Translations under genes and position numbers: made by a program
Notes under the pieces: model-generated
The model's input: only the letters and a program-made list of their open reading frames with translations
Told to the model about the DNA's origin: nothing
Database searches by the model: none
IMG/VR virus record: IMGVR_UViG_3300032297_000368
Location: 17,470 to 81,469 of that record
Length of the DNA: 64,000 nt
DNA from: a virus
Strand: one strand, 5' to 3'
In this document: piece after piece, positions 17,386 through 50,574 of the stretch
Numbering within the stretch: the stretch's first letter is position 1
Layout of the letters: every line of letters begins with the position of its first letter

Positions 17386-17688
17386 TTAACAATTCCATTT
17401 TCTCAACGATTTGTTGATACGTGAATCTGGATCACGTGCTGTTTCAGCTGATGTTAGTTTATCTTTCATGCCTCGCATTCTACGGCAGAATGATAATCTA
17501 CGTTTAGCTGACTTAGAACCTTTTTTTAATTTTGATGGATCTGTAGTAACAGCAGTTTGTAACTTGGAACCTGGATTTTCACGGCGATAAGATTCAACTC
17601 CTTTTTGGTTTAAACCACCTTCAGGATTTTTTCCTTCTTTACGCTGCCATGCCGCAGATTCGTTAATAAATTCTTTGAATGATATCAT
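17386..17688 (-). CDS. Basic phage protein (DUF6321-like) with a capsid-targeting-like N-terminus
   Basis: MISFKEFINES; AWQRKEGKNPEGGLN...SFCRRM...SLRKWNC. Confidence 0.7.
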   Translation of the reverse strand: MISFKEFINESAAWQRKEGKNPEGGLNQKGVESYRRENPGSKLQTAVTTDPSKLKKGSKSAKRRLSFCRRMRGMKDKLTSAETARDPDSRINKSLRKWNC

Positions 17689-30081: not shown

Positions 30082-31197
30082 CTACCGAATTATGTCAATA
30101 TCTTTTCCGCTAGTCCAAACCTCTTGTTCTGTACGTAAACGACCTTCGGTCTTCAGAGTTTCATATCTGTTAATGGCTTTCTTTCTCCACCACTCAATAA
30201 TGTTACTCAAATGAAACTTTTCATAGTTCTCACCAGCCTCTAGTTTAGTGGCTTTTCCATTGACAAAATCGACCATATTTTTGTAACCATAGTCAGATAT
30301 GAAGTATCGTTTCTGTTCGTTCAGATTCTTGGCCTTCTCGATGGTTTCTTTAAATTTTACACCTTCTGGTGTTCCTTTAAGTGCGATACCAACCATCGAA
30401 ACTATTGCATTTGATATTTTCAATTTACGACTAGAAGCATTTAGTGGTGCCAATGGTTCACCAGTAATATTCTCAACATATTCTTTCAGATCAGTATATG
30501 TTTTACCGTGTAACATAGGAAGAAAATCTGAATCTGTTAGACCTTTGTAACGAATAAAAGGTTTCATGCCATCATATTGTGACACTGTTTTTGTAGAACC
30601 ATATAAAGAAGTGGTTTCAAAAAGACAAGTGTTCATTTTATACTTGGCATTTAACATCTCACGAACTTCATGTGATGTACAGATTGCCGCCATAAGTTTA
30701 CCACCTAGATAATTATAACCAAATGGTTGTGAAGGTACAATAACAAAACCCATAGCAGCACACTCATTGAATCTTTTGGCACCACCCTCAGTTTGTGTAA
30801 ACACTGCTCCAAGCATCTCATTACGTGGCTTACAGTTAATCACAGGTGAACCTAGGCGAATAAAACCACACCATTTACCAGTTGTCTTTTCCATAACAGC
30901 AAGTCTTAGGCAACGACCTGGAATACTTGTCATATTAGAATGACTTGATATTATGTTAAGATATAAGTCCCATTGCGATTGTGACAACTCGACCACCTCA
31001 AACTCCATCGACTCTGGAGAGAGACTAAAATCTGAGTATAGGTCTTCTTCTGGTCCCCCAAAAGGAAGCGCAGGAGGTCTATCGGAGAGACTGGCCAATT
31101 TCTGTTCACGCATGTACTCATCAATACGATTGAACTTGTCAAAGTAGTCACTATAAATGTTAGCACAATGTAATGCTTGTTCTTTTGTTAACTTCAT
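30082..31197 (-). CDS. DUF4338/DruA-like protein, paralog A
   Basis: PGRCLRLAV, VPSQPFGYNYLGGKLMA, ETTSLYG, SQYDG. Confidence 0.7.
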   Translation of the reverse strand: MKLTKEQALHCANIYSDYFDKFNRIDEYMREQKLASLSDRPPALPFGGPEEDLYSDFSLSPESMEFEVVELSQSQWDLYLNIISSHSNMTSIPGRCLRLAVMEKTTGKWCGFIRLGSPVINCKPRNEMLGAVFTQTEGGAKRFNECAAMGFVIVPSQPFGYNYLGGKLMAAICTSHEVREMLNAKYKMNTCLFETTSLYGSTKTVSQYDGMKPFIRYKGLTDSDFLPMLHGKTYTDLKEYVENITGEPLAPLNASSRKLKISNAIVSMVGIALKGTPEGVKFKETIEKAKNLNEQKRYFISDYGYKNMVDFVNGKATKLEAGENYEKFHLSNIIEWWRKKAINRYETLKTEGRLRTEQEVWTSGKDIDIIR

Positions 31198-46563: not shown

Positions 46564-48882
46564 TTATACAGCTATTTCTTGTATGAAACGTGAGACCAGT
46601 ACTCGGTTTACCTGACGTTTTTTGTTATATTTACCAAAAGCACTTTTAAGTTTGCCTGCGGTAACATTACCGTTAATCTCCAACTCTTCGTTATCAATTT
46701 GTAAATTATCGCCACCAGCAATAAAGTAAAATTTACGGTAGCCAAAATTGTGTGATTCTAAGAATTTTTCAGTTTTCAATTCTTGCATTTTTTCTTTAAG
46801 AATCGGTGAATTTCTATATTCAGATTCATAGTGATGACGACCAGGTATTAATGTTTCATCAATCTTATCGATCAAAGTTTTTTTATCATCAAATCTAAAA
46901 TGACGGAACAAAGCATTTCTAGCTGATGAACCTTTCTCAGTGATAAAGAAAGCAAAAGTTTTAGCACCGGTGGTATCTGTTAACCACTGTAAAGCAGCAC
47001 CTGTCATATCGTTATCTTCACGTGATAACAGATAACTTTTTTTAGTTTTATTATCAGTAAGAATGACGTTTTCACGGTTAAGATTATAATAACTTTGAGG
47101 TTTATGTAGTGCTTTAGGATCACTTACATACCGATTAGTAGCATCAGCATCACCGTCTTGAATAAAAACAATATTCACCAAGTCTAAATTATTATTTTGT
47201 TTAAACGAATCTACAATAGGTTTTACCGCAAAAACAGTTTCATTAAATGGTGTTGCACTCAGTGTTTCTGTTGGCGGTAAACCACCATGAGCTCTGTTAT
47301 AATAACTATCAGGATTACTATAATCATAAAGGCTTCTGATATACAATAAATTTTTAACAGCCTTAGTATATTCACTACCGCTCATGCGAGAATTTAAATA
47401 CTCACGTAGGAAAACATCATCTAAGTATAAATCATTCAGATTGTTTTCAAAACATGGTGGTATGCTCTCATCAAAGTCAATAGAGTATTCTAATTTTCTA
47501 ACAACTTGAGCGTCACCAAAACCATAAACAATAAAAGGAATATTTACTTTACGGCAAAACATAGTTAAGATTAAAACCTGTTCGATAGAACCTGCCATAT
47601 TGTTTGACATTGAACCAGATTTATCTAACAGAATAACTAAGCCATGAGATTTACCTTTTGGTGTTTTTGTAAGTTTACGGAAGATAGAATCATCAAGTTT
47701 ATACTTGTAGATTTTACCCATGTCAAGATCACCACTGGTAGATAATTTAGTTTTAGCATAAGATTTTGCCGCTTTACGCATTTCAAATTCTTTTGCCAAT
47801 AGTGAAATGTATCTCTCATTCTTTTTCTTAAACTCATTTAATGAATCATTAGATTCGAGTACCGAAGCACCACGGTGTTCAATGACATAATTGGTAATAC
47901 CTGCATGTACTTTTTCAGCAGGTGTAATAATGTTTTTCAGATTAGGTGTTGGTACATTAATATAAACAAAAGGTTTAGATTCTTTTGATAACAATTCAGT
48001 TTCACGTAAACGGAAACTCTCATCGGTTTCACATGTAGGTTCGAATGAATTATTATCGTAAGATTCTTTATCACGATTTATTTCGGATGATTCTTCACCT
48101 TCCTCATCATCACCTTCACCGTCTTTAGCATTTAAAGGCTTACCATCTTCACCTTCATCACCCTCTTCATCACCATCACCTGTAGTGTCAGCATTAGATT
48201 CTTCACCGTACTCTGATTCGATCTCAGATTCGGAATCATAATCATCATCACCGTCACCTTCACTCAGGTCATAATCTTCTTGCAAATCTTTTAACAATTG
48301 CTGTTCTTGTTTTTCTTGCTGTTCTTGTTTAGAATATGCCCATACTTTATCAGTAACAGCAACAACATCTTCCCAAGTTTCACAAGCAAAAACTTCATCT
48401 ACCAGTTTTTGTTCTTCTGGTGTAAAATCTAAACCAGCAGTGGTGAATAAAGATTTAAAGTGTAAGTTTAAACGGTCGATAAAAAACAATTCACTTACAG
48501 GACGGCCTTTGATACCGAAAAAATCTTCTTGATTGAATTTTTCGTAGGCAGTTTTAAATGATTTTTTAAGACCGGGGTAACGGCGTTTAATTTTCTTTTC
48601 GATACGAGCATCTTCAATAACATTTAAGAAATGCTTGTAACCTTTACCTTTAGTACATACAGCATCATGCCAACCTTGTTGAGGTGTTTCAGTAGCATGG
48701 CCTACCTCATGACCTAACAAAAGATCATAAGTATCACCGCCCATATCTTTCCAGATGGGGCAAACTAATGTACGGTTTTTCAAATCGAAATACGCTGTTT
48801 GAACCTTAGCGTGTTGGACTGTAATATTTTCGGTGGCCATCAGCTTGGCCAATTGGGATTTAGACTCTACGGTAAATGTCAT
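46564..48882 (-). CDS. Metallopeptidase-like + vWA domain protein (CobT-like AAA partner)
   Basis: GHEVGH (HExxH), NVIEDARIE, acidic linker, LDKSGSM (MIDAS), TP, QDGD. Confidence 0.85.
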   Translation of the reverse strand: MTFTVESKSQLAKLMATENITVQHAKVQTAYFDLKNRTLVCPIWKDMGGDTYDLLLGHEVGHATETPQQGWHDAVCTKGKGYKHFLNVIEDARIEKKIKRRYPGLKKSFKTAYEKFNQEDFFGIKGRPVSELFFIDRLNLHFKSLFTTAGLDFTPEEQKLVDEVFACETWEDVVAVTDKVWAYSKQEQQEKQEQQLLKDLQEDYDLSEGDGDDDYDSESEIESEYGEESNADTTGDGDEEGDEGEDGKPLNAKDGEGDDEEGEESSEINRDKESYDNNSFEPTCETDESFRLRETELLSKESKPFVYINVPTPNLKNIITPAEKVHAGITNYVIEHRGASVLESNDSLNEFKKKNERYISLLAKEFEMRKAAKSYAKTKLSTSGDLDMGKIYKYKLDDSIFRKLTKTPKGKSHGLVILLDKSGSMSNNMAGSIEQVLILTMFCRKVNIPFIVYGFGDAQVVRKLEYSIDFDESIPPCFENNLNDLYLDDVFLREYLNSRMSGSEYTKAVKNLLYIRSLYDYSNPDSYYNRAHGGLPPTETLSATPFNETVFAVKPIVDSFKQNNNLDLVNIVFIQDGDADATNRYVSDPKALHKPQSYYNLNRENVILTDNKTKKSYLLSREDNDMTGAALQWLTDTTGAKTFAFFITEKGSSARNALFRHFRFDDKKTLIDKIDETLIPGRHHYESEYRNSPILKEKMQELKTEKFLESHNFGYRKFYFIAGGDNLQIDNEELEINGNVTAGKLKSAFGKYNKKRQVNRVLVSRFIQEIAV

Positions 48883-48898
48883 TTTGATAATCTCTCAT

Positions 48899-49105
48899 TT
48901 ATTCAGATTCTATTATATCATTTTCAAAAGAATAAGTCAAGTATTCCTGATATTCAGGTAACTTTTCAATCTCGGACATTATCTTTTTGATACCAAATTG
49001 ACGTATTGCACATTTGATATCTAAGATTGCATATTGATAACTGTTATCAATATGATATTCATCGTAAATCTGTTGTAATTTTGACATGTTTTCCTCACTG
49101 TTCAT
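48899..49105 (-). CDS. Small early hypothetical protein
   Basis: Downstream of an early promoter; GAGGA SD before the second Met. Confidence 0.55.
   Translation of the reverse strand: MNSEENMSKLQQIYDEYHIDNSYQYAILDIKCAIRQFGIKKIMSEIEKLPEYQEYLTYSFENDIIESE
48912..48940 (-). promoter_or_regulatory. Sigma70 early promoter (inside the 3' end of the small ORF)
   Basis: TTGACT-17-TATAAT with TG. Confidence 0.75.
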
Positions 49106-49111
49106 GTTACC

Positions 49112-49170
49112 ATTATACCAGAACCAGTGAGTAAGTCAATAGAAAAAGTGTTGTAAAAATACAACACTTT
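49112..49170 (-). promoter_or_regulatory. Sigma70 early promoter preceded by the palindrome AAAGTGTTGT-6-ACAACACTTT
   Basis: TTGACT-16-TATAAT (49112-49139); inverted repeat at 49145-49170. Confidence 0.75.
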
Positions 49171-49177
49171 GGGAAGA

Positions 49178-49243
49178 TGGAGCGGTGAGACTGATTCGCA
49201 CAATCGGACTAGGTTGGGCACCCAATCTGTTCTAAACCACCGC
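49178..49243 (-). tRNA. Atypical D-armless tRNA-Gly-like RNA with encoded CCA
   Basis: GCGGTGG TTTAGAAC AGATTGGGTGCCCAACCT AGTCC GATTG TGCGAAT CAGTC TCACCGC T CCA: 7-bp acceptor stem, U73, 5-bp T-stem with a 7-nt loop, GCC/CCC in the middle arm, no D-stem. Confidence 0.75.
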
Positions 49244-49250
49244 ATATTAA

Positions 49251-49288
49251 GCGGTGATTACTACATCTAATCACCGCATATACTTATA
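49251..49288 (-). promoter_or_regulatory. Late-promoter-like TATAAGTA and a 10-bp hairpin upstream of the tRNA-like gene
   Basis: TATAAGTA at 49281-49288; GCGGTGATTA/TAATCACCGC at 49251-49277. Confidence 0.5.
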
Positions 49289-49296
49289 TAGGCGTT

Positions 49297-50574
49297 TTAT
49301 CTGCCAACTTGAGGTAAATATTTCTCCTTACATTCTTCCCATGACAAATAAATTAAATCGTCATAGAAAAGAGTTTCATATGAAACATTATTCTTTTTGA
49401 TTAGTTGTTTGATACGACCTTTAACATGTTTTGTTTTCCACAATTCAGTCAAAGCCTGTTCACTATTATCAAACAGTTTAGTCATATCACCTTTATAATC
49501 GCCACGTAAAAATTCACATGTCTTATCAAATAATGGTGCAAAGTAAATACCTCTGTGGTGTTCTGCCTTAATTAATTCTTTTGGTACTTTTAATTTTGAA
49601 TATGTAAAGTTCAAAGAACGATTCTTGTGGTCACGTTTATATGGTTGACCAGAAGGTTTCTTTGCTGCGTACCATTCAAAGTATTTACGTGTATGATTAA
49701 CTTTCAACCACTCACGTACCTTATATCTTGTATTGCGTTCAGGTTCAAACGATACAGAACCAGAACTGAAACCCATCGGCAACCAATGATCTAGATTATC
49801 ATACTGAGACAAACCACCGGCCTTTGTACGACCATATAAAGATGTTGTAGTGACGCCAACAAGTTTATCTTTATATTGATTTTGCCATGTCTTCTCTACT
49901 GTATCAGATAAACAAAGCAATGCCAATAGTTTACCACCAACATAATTAAATCCTAGCGGTTGTAATGGCACAATAGTAGAACCAATAGCAGTGTGATTAA
50001 TCATGCCGCCTTGTGTTTTTAATTCTCTTTCCCAACCAATAAACTTATCACGAGGTGTTAAGTCTAAGAAATCTGAAGAGATACAAATAACACCGAGATA
50101 TTTCTTAGTTACTTTATCTTGTACAATAAAGTTTAAGTTTCTACCGATGTTAGAGTTGTTCTTCATGGTAGATGAGAATGTACGAATACAATTCCACAAT
50201 TCAGGAAGATTACTATCTTTTACATTTGTATATATCAGTGTCGGTTCAAGATTCAGATAATCTTCTGGTGATGTTGGCATCCAGATATTATCTTTAACAT
50301 GTTGTATCAACTCAGCCTGAGATTCATCTTGCAATACCTTTTTAGGACCTGACCATAGATCAGATACAATCATAGTAGGAAACTTTTCTTGAATCTCACA
50401 CCACTTCTGATATAGAATATACTCACGCACATCCATCTTAGAAATATACGACAAGTCTTCTTCTAAAGAAGTTTTAATATCTTCTTCACTATAATGTACA
50501 TAATTCTCAGGAGGATTTTCTCGTTGCCAATCATTCCACTGAGTTTCAATATCTTTAATTTGCTGTTTGCTCAT
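49297..50574 (-). CDS. DUF4338/DruA-like protein, paralog B
   Basis: IGRNLNFIV, VPLQPLGFNYVGGKLLA, TTTSLYG, SQYDN. Confidence 0.7.
   Translation of the reverse strand: MSKQQIKDIETQWNDWQRENPPENYVHYSEEDIKTSLEEDLSYISKMDVREYILYQKWCEIQEKFPTMIVSDLWSGPKKVLQDESQAELIQHVKDNIWMPTSPEDYLNLEPTLIYTNVKDSNLPELWNCIRTFSSTMKNNSNIGRNLNFIVQDKVTKKYLGVICISSDFLDLTPRDKFIGWERELKTQGGMINHTAIGSTIVPLQPLGFNYVGGKLLALLCLSDTVEKTWQNQYKDKLVGVTTTSLYGRTKAGGLSQYDNLDHWLPMGFSSGSVSFEPERNTRYKVREWLKVNHTRKYFEWYAAKKPSGQPYKRDHKNRSLNFTYSKLKVPKELIKAEHHRGIYFAPLFDKTCEFLRGDYKGDMTKLFDNSEQALTELWKTKHVKGRIKQLIKKNNVSYETLFYDDLIYLSWEECKEKYLPQVGR

Follow-up and report, generated by a model that had tools for sequence, protein, structure and literature searches.

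The 64,000-nucleotide stretch of viral DNA analysed here (the window, positions 17,470 to 81,469 of the IMG/VR virus record IMGVR_UViG_3300032297_000368) carries on its minus strand, at 49178–49243, a 66-nt gene for a tRNA-Gly-like RNA, exactly where an earlier sequence-only reading of this DNA had placed it. This element is almost certainly a real RNA maintained by selection. It represents a family of virus-encoded tRNA-derived RNAs that are invisible to standard annotation and are present on at least 134 contigs, mostly of freshwater T4-like phages. The family was previously unlisted; its reduced architecture, viral origin, and gene context are new, whereas non-decoding tRNA-derived RNAs and tRNA-dependent GNAT chemistry are already known. 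No description of D-armless or D-arm-reduced tRNA-like genes in phages was found in the literature searched. We suggest that the element may be a carrier of glycine for a use outside the ribosome.

Architecture and detection of the element

The minimum free energy (MFE) fold of the element is a three-way junction (−23.1 kcal/mol). The stability of this fold, taken alone, is modestly unusual (z = −2.29; 7 of 200 shuffles fold equally well). Nucleotide n from the 5' end corresponds to window coordinate 49244 − n. The acceptor stem, supported by the fold and by the pairing in related sequences, consists of a 5' strand GCGGUGG (49237–49243) and a 3' strand UCACCGC joined by seven pairs, among them G1-C72, C2-G71, G3-C70, and a G-U as the last one. 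The 3' strand continues into U73 (49181) and an encoded CCA (49178–49180), the whole 3' part occupying 49178–49188.

The site of the D arm is occupied by the 9-nt linker UUUAGAACA (49228–49236), which contains no GG and forms no canonical D arm (a stem of 3–4 bp, a loop with G18 and G19, U8, and N9). The sequence-only reading had called the D arm cleanly absent. This holds for the normal arm, but a GUU/AAC mini-hairpin of at most 3 bp, which would use G7, may remain.

The anticodon-like arm (49207–49227) can be drawn with 8 bp and the loop GCCCA or, equivalently, with 7 bp and the 7-nt loop U-G-C-C-C-A-A (49214–49220), in which CCC lies at 49216–49218. G occupies the place of the universal U33. 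A single connector base, C (49206), stands instead of the variable region, and the canonical combination of a 5-bp anticodon stem, a 7-nt loop with U33, and a variable region of 4–5 nt is absent. The T arm (49189–49205) is composed of GAUUG, the 7-nt loop UGCGAAU (49194–49200), and CAGUC, with five pairs, one of them U-G. U54, A58, and G53-C61 are kept, while Psi55 and C56 are not, positions 55–56 being G-C.

Standard ARAGORN found no tRNA in the window. Rfam gave nothing there at the gathering score and no tRNA match (RF00005) even at E ≤ 10; around the element, the matches at this relaxed threshold were chance ones to snoRNA/miRNA families only. The gene is therefore missed by standard finders, as the sequence-only reading had expected together with a match in the mitochondrial mode only. 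Indeed, ARAGORN in the mitochondrial mode reported a "D-loop mtRNA-Gly(ccc)" at the exact coordinates of the element. This call is not evidence by itself, since 15 calls were made in this mode in the 81-kb genome and the standard mode confirmed only one tRNA (tRNA-Thr).

Covariance models were more informative. The model R2, trained on 30 relatives with the window copy excluded, ranked the element first on both strands of the window, end to end, with 18.7 bits and E = 0.007; filters had to be switched off, since the window copy is missed by the default ones. A second model, R1, scored the element at 41.6 bits. The fold, the sequence, and the R2 match thus agree with the initial description of a tRNA-Gly-like gene with intact U73 and CCA and no normal D arm. 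Standard ARAGORN and Rfam also found no element of the relatives in the 12–16 loci tested. Since ARAGORN is blind to these genes and Rfam has no such family, phage tRNA inventories undercount it.

Family of related elements, conservation, and covariation

The starting relatives were loci fetched by the DruA protein encoded next to the element, in which related elements occupied the same slot. Two gene-blind DNA pattern scans of viral contigs (IMG/VR) then gave 134 loci with about 64 distinct sequences, which form two clades. The string CCGCTCCA was built into the second scan pattern and both collection filters, which limits the weight of its invariance.

Clade A includes 76 loci with 30 distinct sequences of 63–68 nt. 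Its D region is GUCYGAGAC, the T loop is UUUAAYU, with U-U at positions 55–56, and the middle loop of 4–7 nt, in most cases 4–6 nt, always contains CCC. Clade B, the type found in the window, includes 58 loci with 33 distinct sequences, the window copy among them, of 66–69 nt. Here the D region of 9–12 nt consists of GUU, 1–3 nt, and AGAACA, the T loop is UGCGAAU, and most middle loops read (U)GUCCA(A) or (U)GCCCA(A). Variants about 96% identical, from two freshwater metagenome runs, have one extra base in the D linker (G on the minus strand, at 49235/49236), so that their element is 67 nt long, the usual clade B length.

Every copy collected shares GCGG...CCGC-U-CCA, that is, G1-C72, C2-G71, G3-C70, U73, and CCA, given the CCGCTCCA filter, and also G53-C61, U54, A58, and CC(C) in the middle loop. 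One clade A sequence, L010:3390–3452, reads A for C2 (GAGG...) and so lacks the identity pair C2-G71, invariant elsewhere; either an allele that has lost its activity or an error in sequencing may account for this.

All three helices covary strongly, and compensatory changes among the relatives are abundant. In the 30 sequences of clade A, 91% of cells were paired, vs 37%–54% when the partners were slid, and double changes occurred in 11 of the 21 pairs. The covariation score was 0.369 vs 0.136 for shuffled data and was reached in none of 500 shuffles. In clade B, acceptor pairs 1–6 were formed in all 33 distinct sequences, with double changes at pairs 4–6, and all five pairs of the T stem were likewise formed in 33 of 33, with double changes in four of them and an invariant G53-C61. 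The clade B counts were derived from a rule-based parse; a MAFFT alignment misplaced the 5' ends and was not used, and the covariance model alignment was untidy in the clade B middle arm. The putative D mini-hairpin is invariant in clade A. In the MFE folds of 62 of the 64 distinct members, the acceptor stem is closed and two or more hairpins are formed.

These data bear out the earlier suggestion that the element is under selection rather than decaying. According to the sequence-only reading, a canonical tRNA-Gly at this site in related phages would have pointed to a pseudogene. The related phages have the same reduced architecture there, and canonical genes, where present, adjoin it as separate genes. 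R1 also matched canonical phage tRNA-Gly genes with 25–32 bits, which indicates that the family descends from tRNA-Gly; as judged from the sequences, the derivation of the element from a phage tRNA-Gly(UCC/CCC) appears clear.

The types of the D region and the T loop co-occur: GUCYGAGAC is found with UUUAAYU, and in sequences with ...AGAAC the T loop is UGCRAAU or UGCAAGA. A non-Watson-Crick G-A is located near the junction between acceptor stem and T stem, at pair 6 in clade A and at pair 7 in clade B. The linked types and the G-A may point to a substitute tertiary contact or simply to common descent. Some elements form tandem pairs 4–7 nt apart (L164:1955–2094, L159:287–430, L219:6126–6263, L073:847–986, and L177:405–546). 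In some of these pairs a clade A copy precedes a clade B copy, so the clades are paralogs able to coexist in one phage.

Charging and decoding features

The bacterial glycine identity set comprises U73, G1-C72, C2-G71, C35, and C36 (PMC9976931), and the whole of it is present in the sequence of the element. As far as the sequences tell, the retained parts are those read by glycyl-tRNA synthetase (GlyRS) and by enzymes that bind the acceptor end, including the acceptor/T stack with G53-C61 and U54...A58. The lost parts appear to be the ones needed by the ribosome: the D arm with G18/G19, the T-loop partners Psi55/C56 and with them the elbow between the D and T loops, U33, and often the 7-nt loop. 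In most of clade B, G occupies position 33; loops in the family as a whole have 4–7 nt, and clade B has a variable region of only 1 nt. The kept and lost parts represent a natural dissection of tRNA into a charging half and a decoding half. Until now, D-arm loss of this sort was known chiefly from animal mitochondria, whose D-armless tRNAs continue to decode.

Some relatives are reduced to a lesser extent. In the full-size relatives L196 and L265, the GAAC of the D linker has its counterpart in the 3' strand of their D stem. The intermediates L236 and L265 keep a D stem of 4 bp, but have a 6-nt loop or a G33 and, in addition, a non-canonical T loop; ARAGORN misses both of them as well.

The existence of a separately conserved extra gene in phages that already own a proper glycine decoder, combined with G33 and loops of variable length, is the main argument both against decoding and against decay. 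The sequence-only reading had regarded normal decoding as doubtful, and G33, the loops of 4–7 nt, and the lost elbow agree with this; the element probably does not decode. Glycylation by the host GlyRS, suggested by the retained identity set, seems slightly more probable than its absence. A minihelix is charged by the GlyRS of Escherichia coli (PMC10464925).

The pairs of the T stem that influence binding to EF-Tu were considered as a further indication. A49-U65 was found in 21 of the 30 distinct clade A sequences and A51-U63 in 23 of 30, while the window copy has G49-C65 and U51-G63. Clade A resembles the weakly EF-Tu-binding pattern of Staphylococcus in this respect, but the argument was given little weight: A49-U65 is shared by the canonical phage tRNA-Gly next to the element, and the copy in the window deviates from the pattern.

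Genomic contexts of the family

The window belongs to an 81-kb contig, a fragment of a T4-like phage with an estimated completeness of 49%, which has the Pelagibacter myophages Mosig and HTVC008M as distant relatives. The public runs containing this contig are labelled freshwater. On the minus strand, the gene order is peptide deformylase, the DruA gene, an A/T-rich motif, a hairpin (hairpin 1), the element, a terminator, a sigma-70 promoter, an open reading frame (ORF) of 68 aa, and an ORF of 772 aa. The DruA gene (49297–50574) encodes a 425-aa protein of the DruA/DUF4338 family (PF14236, Pfam E = 5.8e-20), and its stop codon is separated from the element by 53 nt.

The members of the family occur in two contexts. 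In the first (context A), the element lies on the same strand after the DruA gene and before the 772-aa gene, sometimes as a tandem pair, and the window copy occupies this same syntenic slot. The gap between the DruA gene and the element is 23–82 nt in most loci. The exceptions are six loci with a 140-nt gap, which holds a second, clade A copy, and two loci with distances of 549 and 766 nt.

In the second (context B), the element is found inside clusters of 5–28 phage tRNA genes, 7 nt after a canonical tRNA-Gly. In phages with 20–28 tRNAs, this neighbour is a tRNA-Gly(UCC) with a UUUCCAA loop, GG in the D loop, and the T loop TTCGATT. The context B phages therefore already own proper glycine decoders. 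DruA family genes were found on three of the four context B contigs tested, the fourth being an 18-kb fragment. Conversely, among four incomplete DruA-positive contigs without an adjacent element, two contained the element elsewhere. When the element and its tRNA-Gly neighbour were compared by BLAST with 50,697 cultured-phage records, the matches were confined to the half with the canonical tRNA-Gly; with the 1.3-kb region as the query, nothing but the DruA gene of pelagiphages was matched.

On contigs of metagenome-assembled genomes, more distantly related DruA genes, of both paralog types, adjoin a tRNA-Gly or a Gly-like gene in arrangements of other kinds. In L265, a DruA paralog is followed after 48 nt by a Gly-like RNA; in L268, one small ORF separates a DruA paralog from a Gly-like RNA. 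In L267, a canonical tRNA-Gly(UCC) is located 13 nt before a DruA paralog, and in L244, a tRNA-Gly(UCC) lies 57 nt before a DruA gene of the main type. The latter tRNA (L244:2317–2391) ends in ...CCGCUCAA and has no encoded CCA, unlike the reduced family. In the DruA-positive relatives L015–L023, the first 60–100 nt past the DruA stop (e.g., L017:4255–4340) contain, in the slot of the missing element, another conserved motif, ...UGCGUCCAGCGCAGGUCAGCUAUGCAAAAA..., followed by a TTGAC-type promoter; this motif may be another small RNA or a regulatory site.

Signals surrounding the element

A putative promoter-like A/T motif, UAUAUAAGUAUAU (49278–49290, minus strand), is located directly upstream of the first GCGG. 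The sequence (C/A)TATATAA(T/A/G)TATA recurs 3–14 nt upstream of G1 in many clade B relatives, and clade A relatives have TTGACA-17-TATAAT or TGnTATAAT at this place. On the other side, 7 nt past CCA, scanning and folding revealed an intrinsic terminator with an 11-bp stem, a 4-nt loop, and a U-rich tail (49145–49170, minus strand). It is followed by a sigma-70-type promoter, TTGACT-16 nt-TG-n-TATAAT (49112–49139, minus strand; 11 of 12 matches plus an extended −10), serving the 68-aa ORF (48899–49105), which is the next gene after the terminator. The flanking terminator and promoter bracket the element as a unit of its own. A second near-consensus sigma-70 promoter (TTGACT, 16–17 nt, TG-n-TATAAT) is present inside the 68-aa ORF at 48912–48940 on the minus strand, both promoters lying within 200 nt.

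Between the promoter-like motif and the element lies hairpin 1 (49251–49277, minus strand), in which GCGGUGAUUA, a 7-nt loop, and UAAUCACCGC form 10 bp from sequences of an acceptor stem. R2 placed it second in the window, aligning it as an acceptor stem and skipping 45 model positions, with a score (9.3 bits, E = 2.9) that has no significance by itself. A tRNA-Ile call of ARAGORN -ps80 spanning hairpin 1 was rejected as spurious. This region has no CCA and overlaps a 34-nt indel polymorphism (approximately 49238–49271) flanked by 10-nt direct repeats (CACCGCAUAU). One environmental contig, an about 92% identical relative, skips 49238–49271 exactly; without these 34 nt, the promoter-like motif abuts G1, the same as in the relatives. 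From its sequence, hairpin 1 is most plausibly what is left of a tandem copy upstream, which probably suffered an internal deletion.

Predicted structure of the DruA protein

An AlphaFold (AF2) model of the 425-aa DruA protein, built from a 28-sequence alignment, had a predicted local distance difference test score (pLDDT) of 89.8. Residues from about 105 to 369 adopt a GNAT fold in the model, and hundreds of GNAT chains matched it at Z ≥ 5. The Mom protein of phage Mu (8BV8) took the first place in three rankings, with a Foldseek E value of 9e-3 and a probability of 0.99–1.0. VIA-align gave Mom Z = 9.8 over 171 aligned residues in a search of representatives, and a rerun on the Foldseek matches returned the same values. 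The ordinary acetyl-CoA GNATs reached Z of about 9.0 over about 145 residues, and FemA 7.6. The DruA alignment has invariant R145, R175, S256, and R341, and the model contains an inserted helical segment at about 280–327. A Pfam search of the protein found PF14236 only, and a sequence search against PDB chains found no match. DruA is thus predicted to have a GNAT fold and may be called Mom-like at best.

Mom was reported in 2026 to move glycine from Gly-tRNAGly onto N6 of adenine in double-stranded DNA, with recognition mainly via the 3' end of the tRNA and the amino acid (PMC13219725). No link of DruA/DUF4338 with a tRNA-like RNA, a GNAT, or Mom was described in the literature searched.

Proposed role in carrying glycine

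We consider it possible, with a probability of about 0.35, that the element is a dedicated glycine carrier for non-ribosomal use; for the whole chain of steps in which it is the glycine donor of a DruA family enzyme, our estimate is about 0.3–0.35. The analysis shows how the element is built, that it is conserved and covaries, in which gene contexts it stands, and that the protein encoded next to it has a GNAT fold; its expression, processing, charging, and partnership with DruA are our inference, as follows. The RNA would be transcribed from its own promoter-like motif as a functional small RNA gene with its own terminator, and in the phage of the window, RNase P would remove the hairpin leader. 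The host GlyRS would then glycylate the RNA through the retained identity set. Since the RNA could not decode, the Gly-RNA would form a separate pool closed to translation. From this pool, glycine could be donated to a phage acyl-transferase of the GNAT type, the favoured candidate being the adjacent DruA/DUF4338 protein. DruA would act either like Mom, transferring glycine to DNA adenine, or like the Fem enzymes, which use non-proteogenic tRNAGly. The partnership of the RNA with DruA is plausible but unproven; in favour of more than synteny are the DruA family genes of context B contigs, the elements located elsewhere on DruA-positive contigs, and the other arrangements of distant DruA genes with glycine tRNA or tRNA-like genes.

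Several observations weigh against this proposal. Concerning charging, the alpha2beta2 GlyRS of L. plantarum hardly glycylated a tRNAGly engineered to lack the D arm (PMC10464925). Concerning the enzyme, the lead of Mom over generic GNATs is only about 1 Z unit, and hhalign comparisons of DruA with the Mu Mom sequence and with a 26-member Mom alignment (PF25680) showed no similarity (probability 0.2). Concerning the link between the two genes, the adjacency to DruA may be inherited synteny. The slot after the DruA gene holds other tRNAs elsewhere, a tRNA-Ser at 10 nt in L030 and a tRNA-Ala at about 900 nt in L032–36. In Pelagibacter phage Mosig, the DruA gene is present and the models had no match anywhere in the complete genome. 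The window itself encodes a second, diverged DruA family paralog of 371 aa (30082–31197, minus strand; PF14236, E = 2.9e-10), which no tRNA-like element adjoins, and no tRNA or tRNA-like gene was found within 1.5 kb of 80 close relatives of this paralog. Contigs of related phages likewise carry two DruA family genes (431 and 369 aa). As for transcription, the contigs of a metatranscriptome run covered only 48772–49090, 49901–50004, and 50143–50187, leaving the element uncovered, which is uninformative either way.

A more specific version of the glycine carrier proposal is tentative and somewhat less probable: the RNA and the DruA GNAT may constitute a two-part phage system, in which the RNA is a host-charged non-decoding carrier and DruA, in counter-defence, attaches a mark derived from glycine to DNA or to some other nucleic acid. 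If this is true, DruA of type I Druantia would, by extension, be a Gly-tRNA-dependent modification (self-marking) enzyme, which would give a function to a defence gene that has none. The recurrence of the elements beside DruA GNAT genes, together with the use of Gly-tRNAGly by Mom, provides a testable lead on the role of DruA/DUF4338 in phages and in Druantia defence.

Alternative explanations

The RNA, charged or not, could instead be a decoy or sponge that mimics the acceptor end of tRNAGly, soaks up a host factor attacking or sensing tRNAGly, and so shields translation. Its targets could be TacT/AtaT2-type GNAT toxins acetylating Gly-tRNAGly, a tRNase acting on the acceptor stem, or a regulator reading uncharged tRNA. 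The features kept by the family are those read by such enzymes, with the decoding parts dispensable; the specificity of TacT, for example, is set by U73 and G71 (PMC9976931). Strong promoter-like and terminator signals and tandem copies would ensure high dosage, and the coexisting canonical tRNA-Gly genes could be the ones shielded. However, a decoy acting stoichiometrically would be of little use against a catalytic toxin, and toxins of this type are not known from the freshwater hosts. To mimic the acceptor end, the RNA would not require the CC(C) loop, yet this loop is a GlyRS determinant. The recurrent neighbourhood of DruA would also be left without explanation, and we regard a decoy as unlikely. 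The sequence-only reading had proposed a decoy for anticodon nucleases or a sensor of host defence. Neither role gained specific support, and that of a glycine donor for the adjacent DruA fits the gene context better.

The second alternative, which we consider improbable, is an unusual decoding tRNA-Gly, a reduced elongator that adds capacity for GGG/GGA codons or resists a host anticodon nuclease. The 7-nt loop of clade B with UCC or CCC at the anticodon position is compatible with it, as are the canonical-looking CUUCCCA loop of the clade A member L106, the placement in tRNA clusters, and the acceptance of the element by ARAGORN in the mitochondrial mode. Nevertheless, most of clade B has G for the near-universal U33, and the clade A loops are mostly of 4–6 nt; the anticodon stem has 7–8 bp and the variable region a single nucleotide. 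Canonical tRNA-Gly(UCC) and (GCC) genes stand right beside the element. In addition, the translation apparatus of nematode mitochondria is adapted to D-armless tRNAs, which is not the case for bacterial ribosomes and EF-Tu (PMC1636415).

Still more improbable is a function in RNA processing or regulation. Like mascRNA, the element could be a signal for cleavage by RNase P/RNase Z or a stabiliser and thereby fix the DruA mRNA 3' end; or else hairpin 1 and the acceptor strands could form a switch by pairing with each other. It lies 53 nt from the DruA stop with a terminator immediately behind, and the four GCGGUG/CACCGC segments allow alternative pairings. On the contrary, relatives have a separate promoter between the DruA stop and G1, and the element is also found in tRNA clusters far from any DruA gene. 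Hairpin 1 is missing from a close environmental variant and all other family members, and a processing signal would not need the invariant U73, CCA, and CC(C) loop.

A decaying functionless tRNA-Gly pseudogene, to which the failure of standard tRNA finders on the window copy, the likeness of hairpin 1 to a decayed copy, and the broken C2-G71 pair of L010 might point, is strongly disfavoured by covariation and very improbable, since about 64 distinct sequences on at least 134 contigs keep three helices by compensatory changes and invariant motifs, and the family persists in lineages without nearly all canonical tRNAs (the 81-kb contig has one, tRNA-Thr).

Comparison with known systems

Several known systems share individual properties with the phage RNAs and their DruA neighbour. 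TacT and AtaT2 are GNATs that read U73 and G71 of tRNAGly (PMC9976931, PMC9177977). They differ in that their acetylation of the charged amino acid stops translation and in that protein antitoxins accompany them, while nothing indicates toxin activity of DruA.

Bacterial pseudo-tRNAs, such as tRNA-Other of Bacillus cereus, are also tRNA-derived genes retained for a non-decoding role (PMC3399842). That RNA has another identity, host, and architecture, and neither D-arm loss nor a GNAT link has been described for it.

The D-armless tRNAs of animal mitochondria, tRNA-Ser(AGY) and those of nematodes, resemble the element in having a short loop in place of the D arm, an extended anticodon stem, and a retained acceptor/T stack. 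However, the mitochondrial tRNAs decode; they have a 7-nt loop with U33 and co-evolved EF-Tu and ribosomes (PMC1636415, PMC4013460). The phage RNAs have G33 or short loops, stand beside canonical isoacceptors, and share no common descent with the mitochondrial genes.

In phage Mu, a GNAT-fold enzyme of the phage is fed by charged tRNAGly, and this enzyme, Mom, is the top structural match of DruA. Unlike the system proposed here, Mom uses the ordinary tRNAGly isoacceptors of the host without a dedicated RNA, and its product is 6-NcmdA, whereas no DNA modification is known for the phages carrying the element. The catalytic residues of Mom are R111, S124, D149, and R151, and it has a helix-turn-helix-like insertion. 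DruA is twice as long, with extra helical parts at the N and C termini, and shows no detectable sequence-profile similarity to it.

The proposed glycine carrier also has a cellular counterpart in Staphylococcus aureus, where non-proteogenic tRNAGly feeds the synthesis of peptidoglycan bridges by FemXAB/FmhB and represents a reserved, poorly decoding pool (PMC7826273). There, too, extra genes have the GlyRS identity, and altered D and T regions together with a T stem weakly bound by EF-Tu (A49-U65, A51-U63) divert the charged tRNA to a GNAT-fold transferase (PMC7826273). The tRNAs of S. aureus are cellular, have full cloverleaves and normal anticodon loops, and are found by standard tools, whereas the phage RNAs are viral and have dispensed with the D arm and U33.

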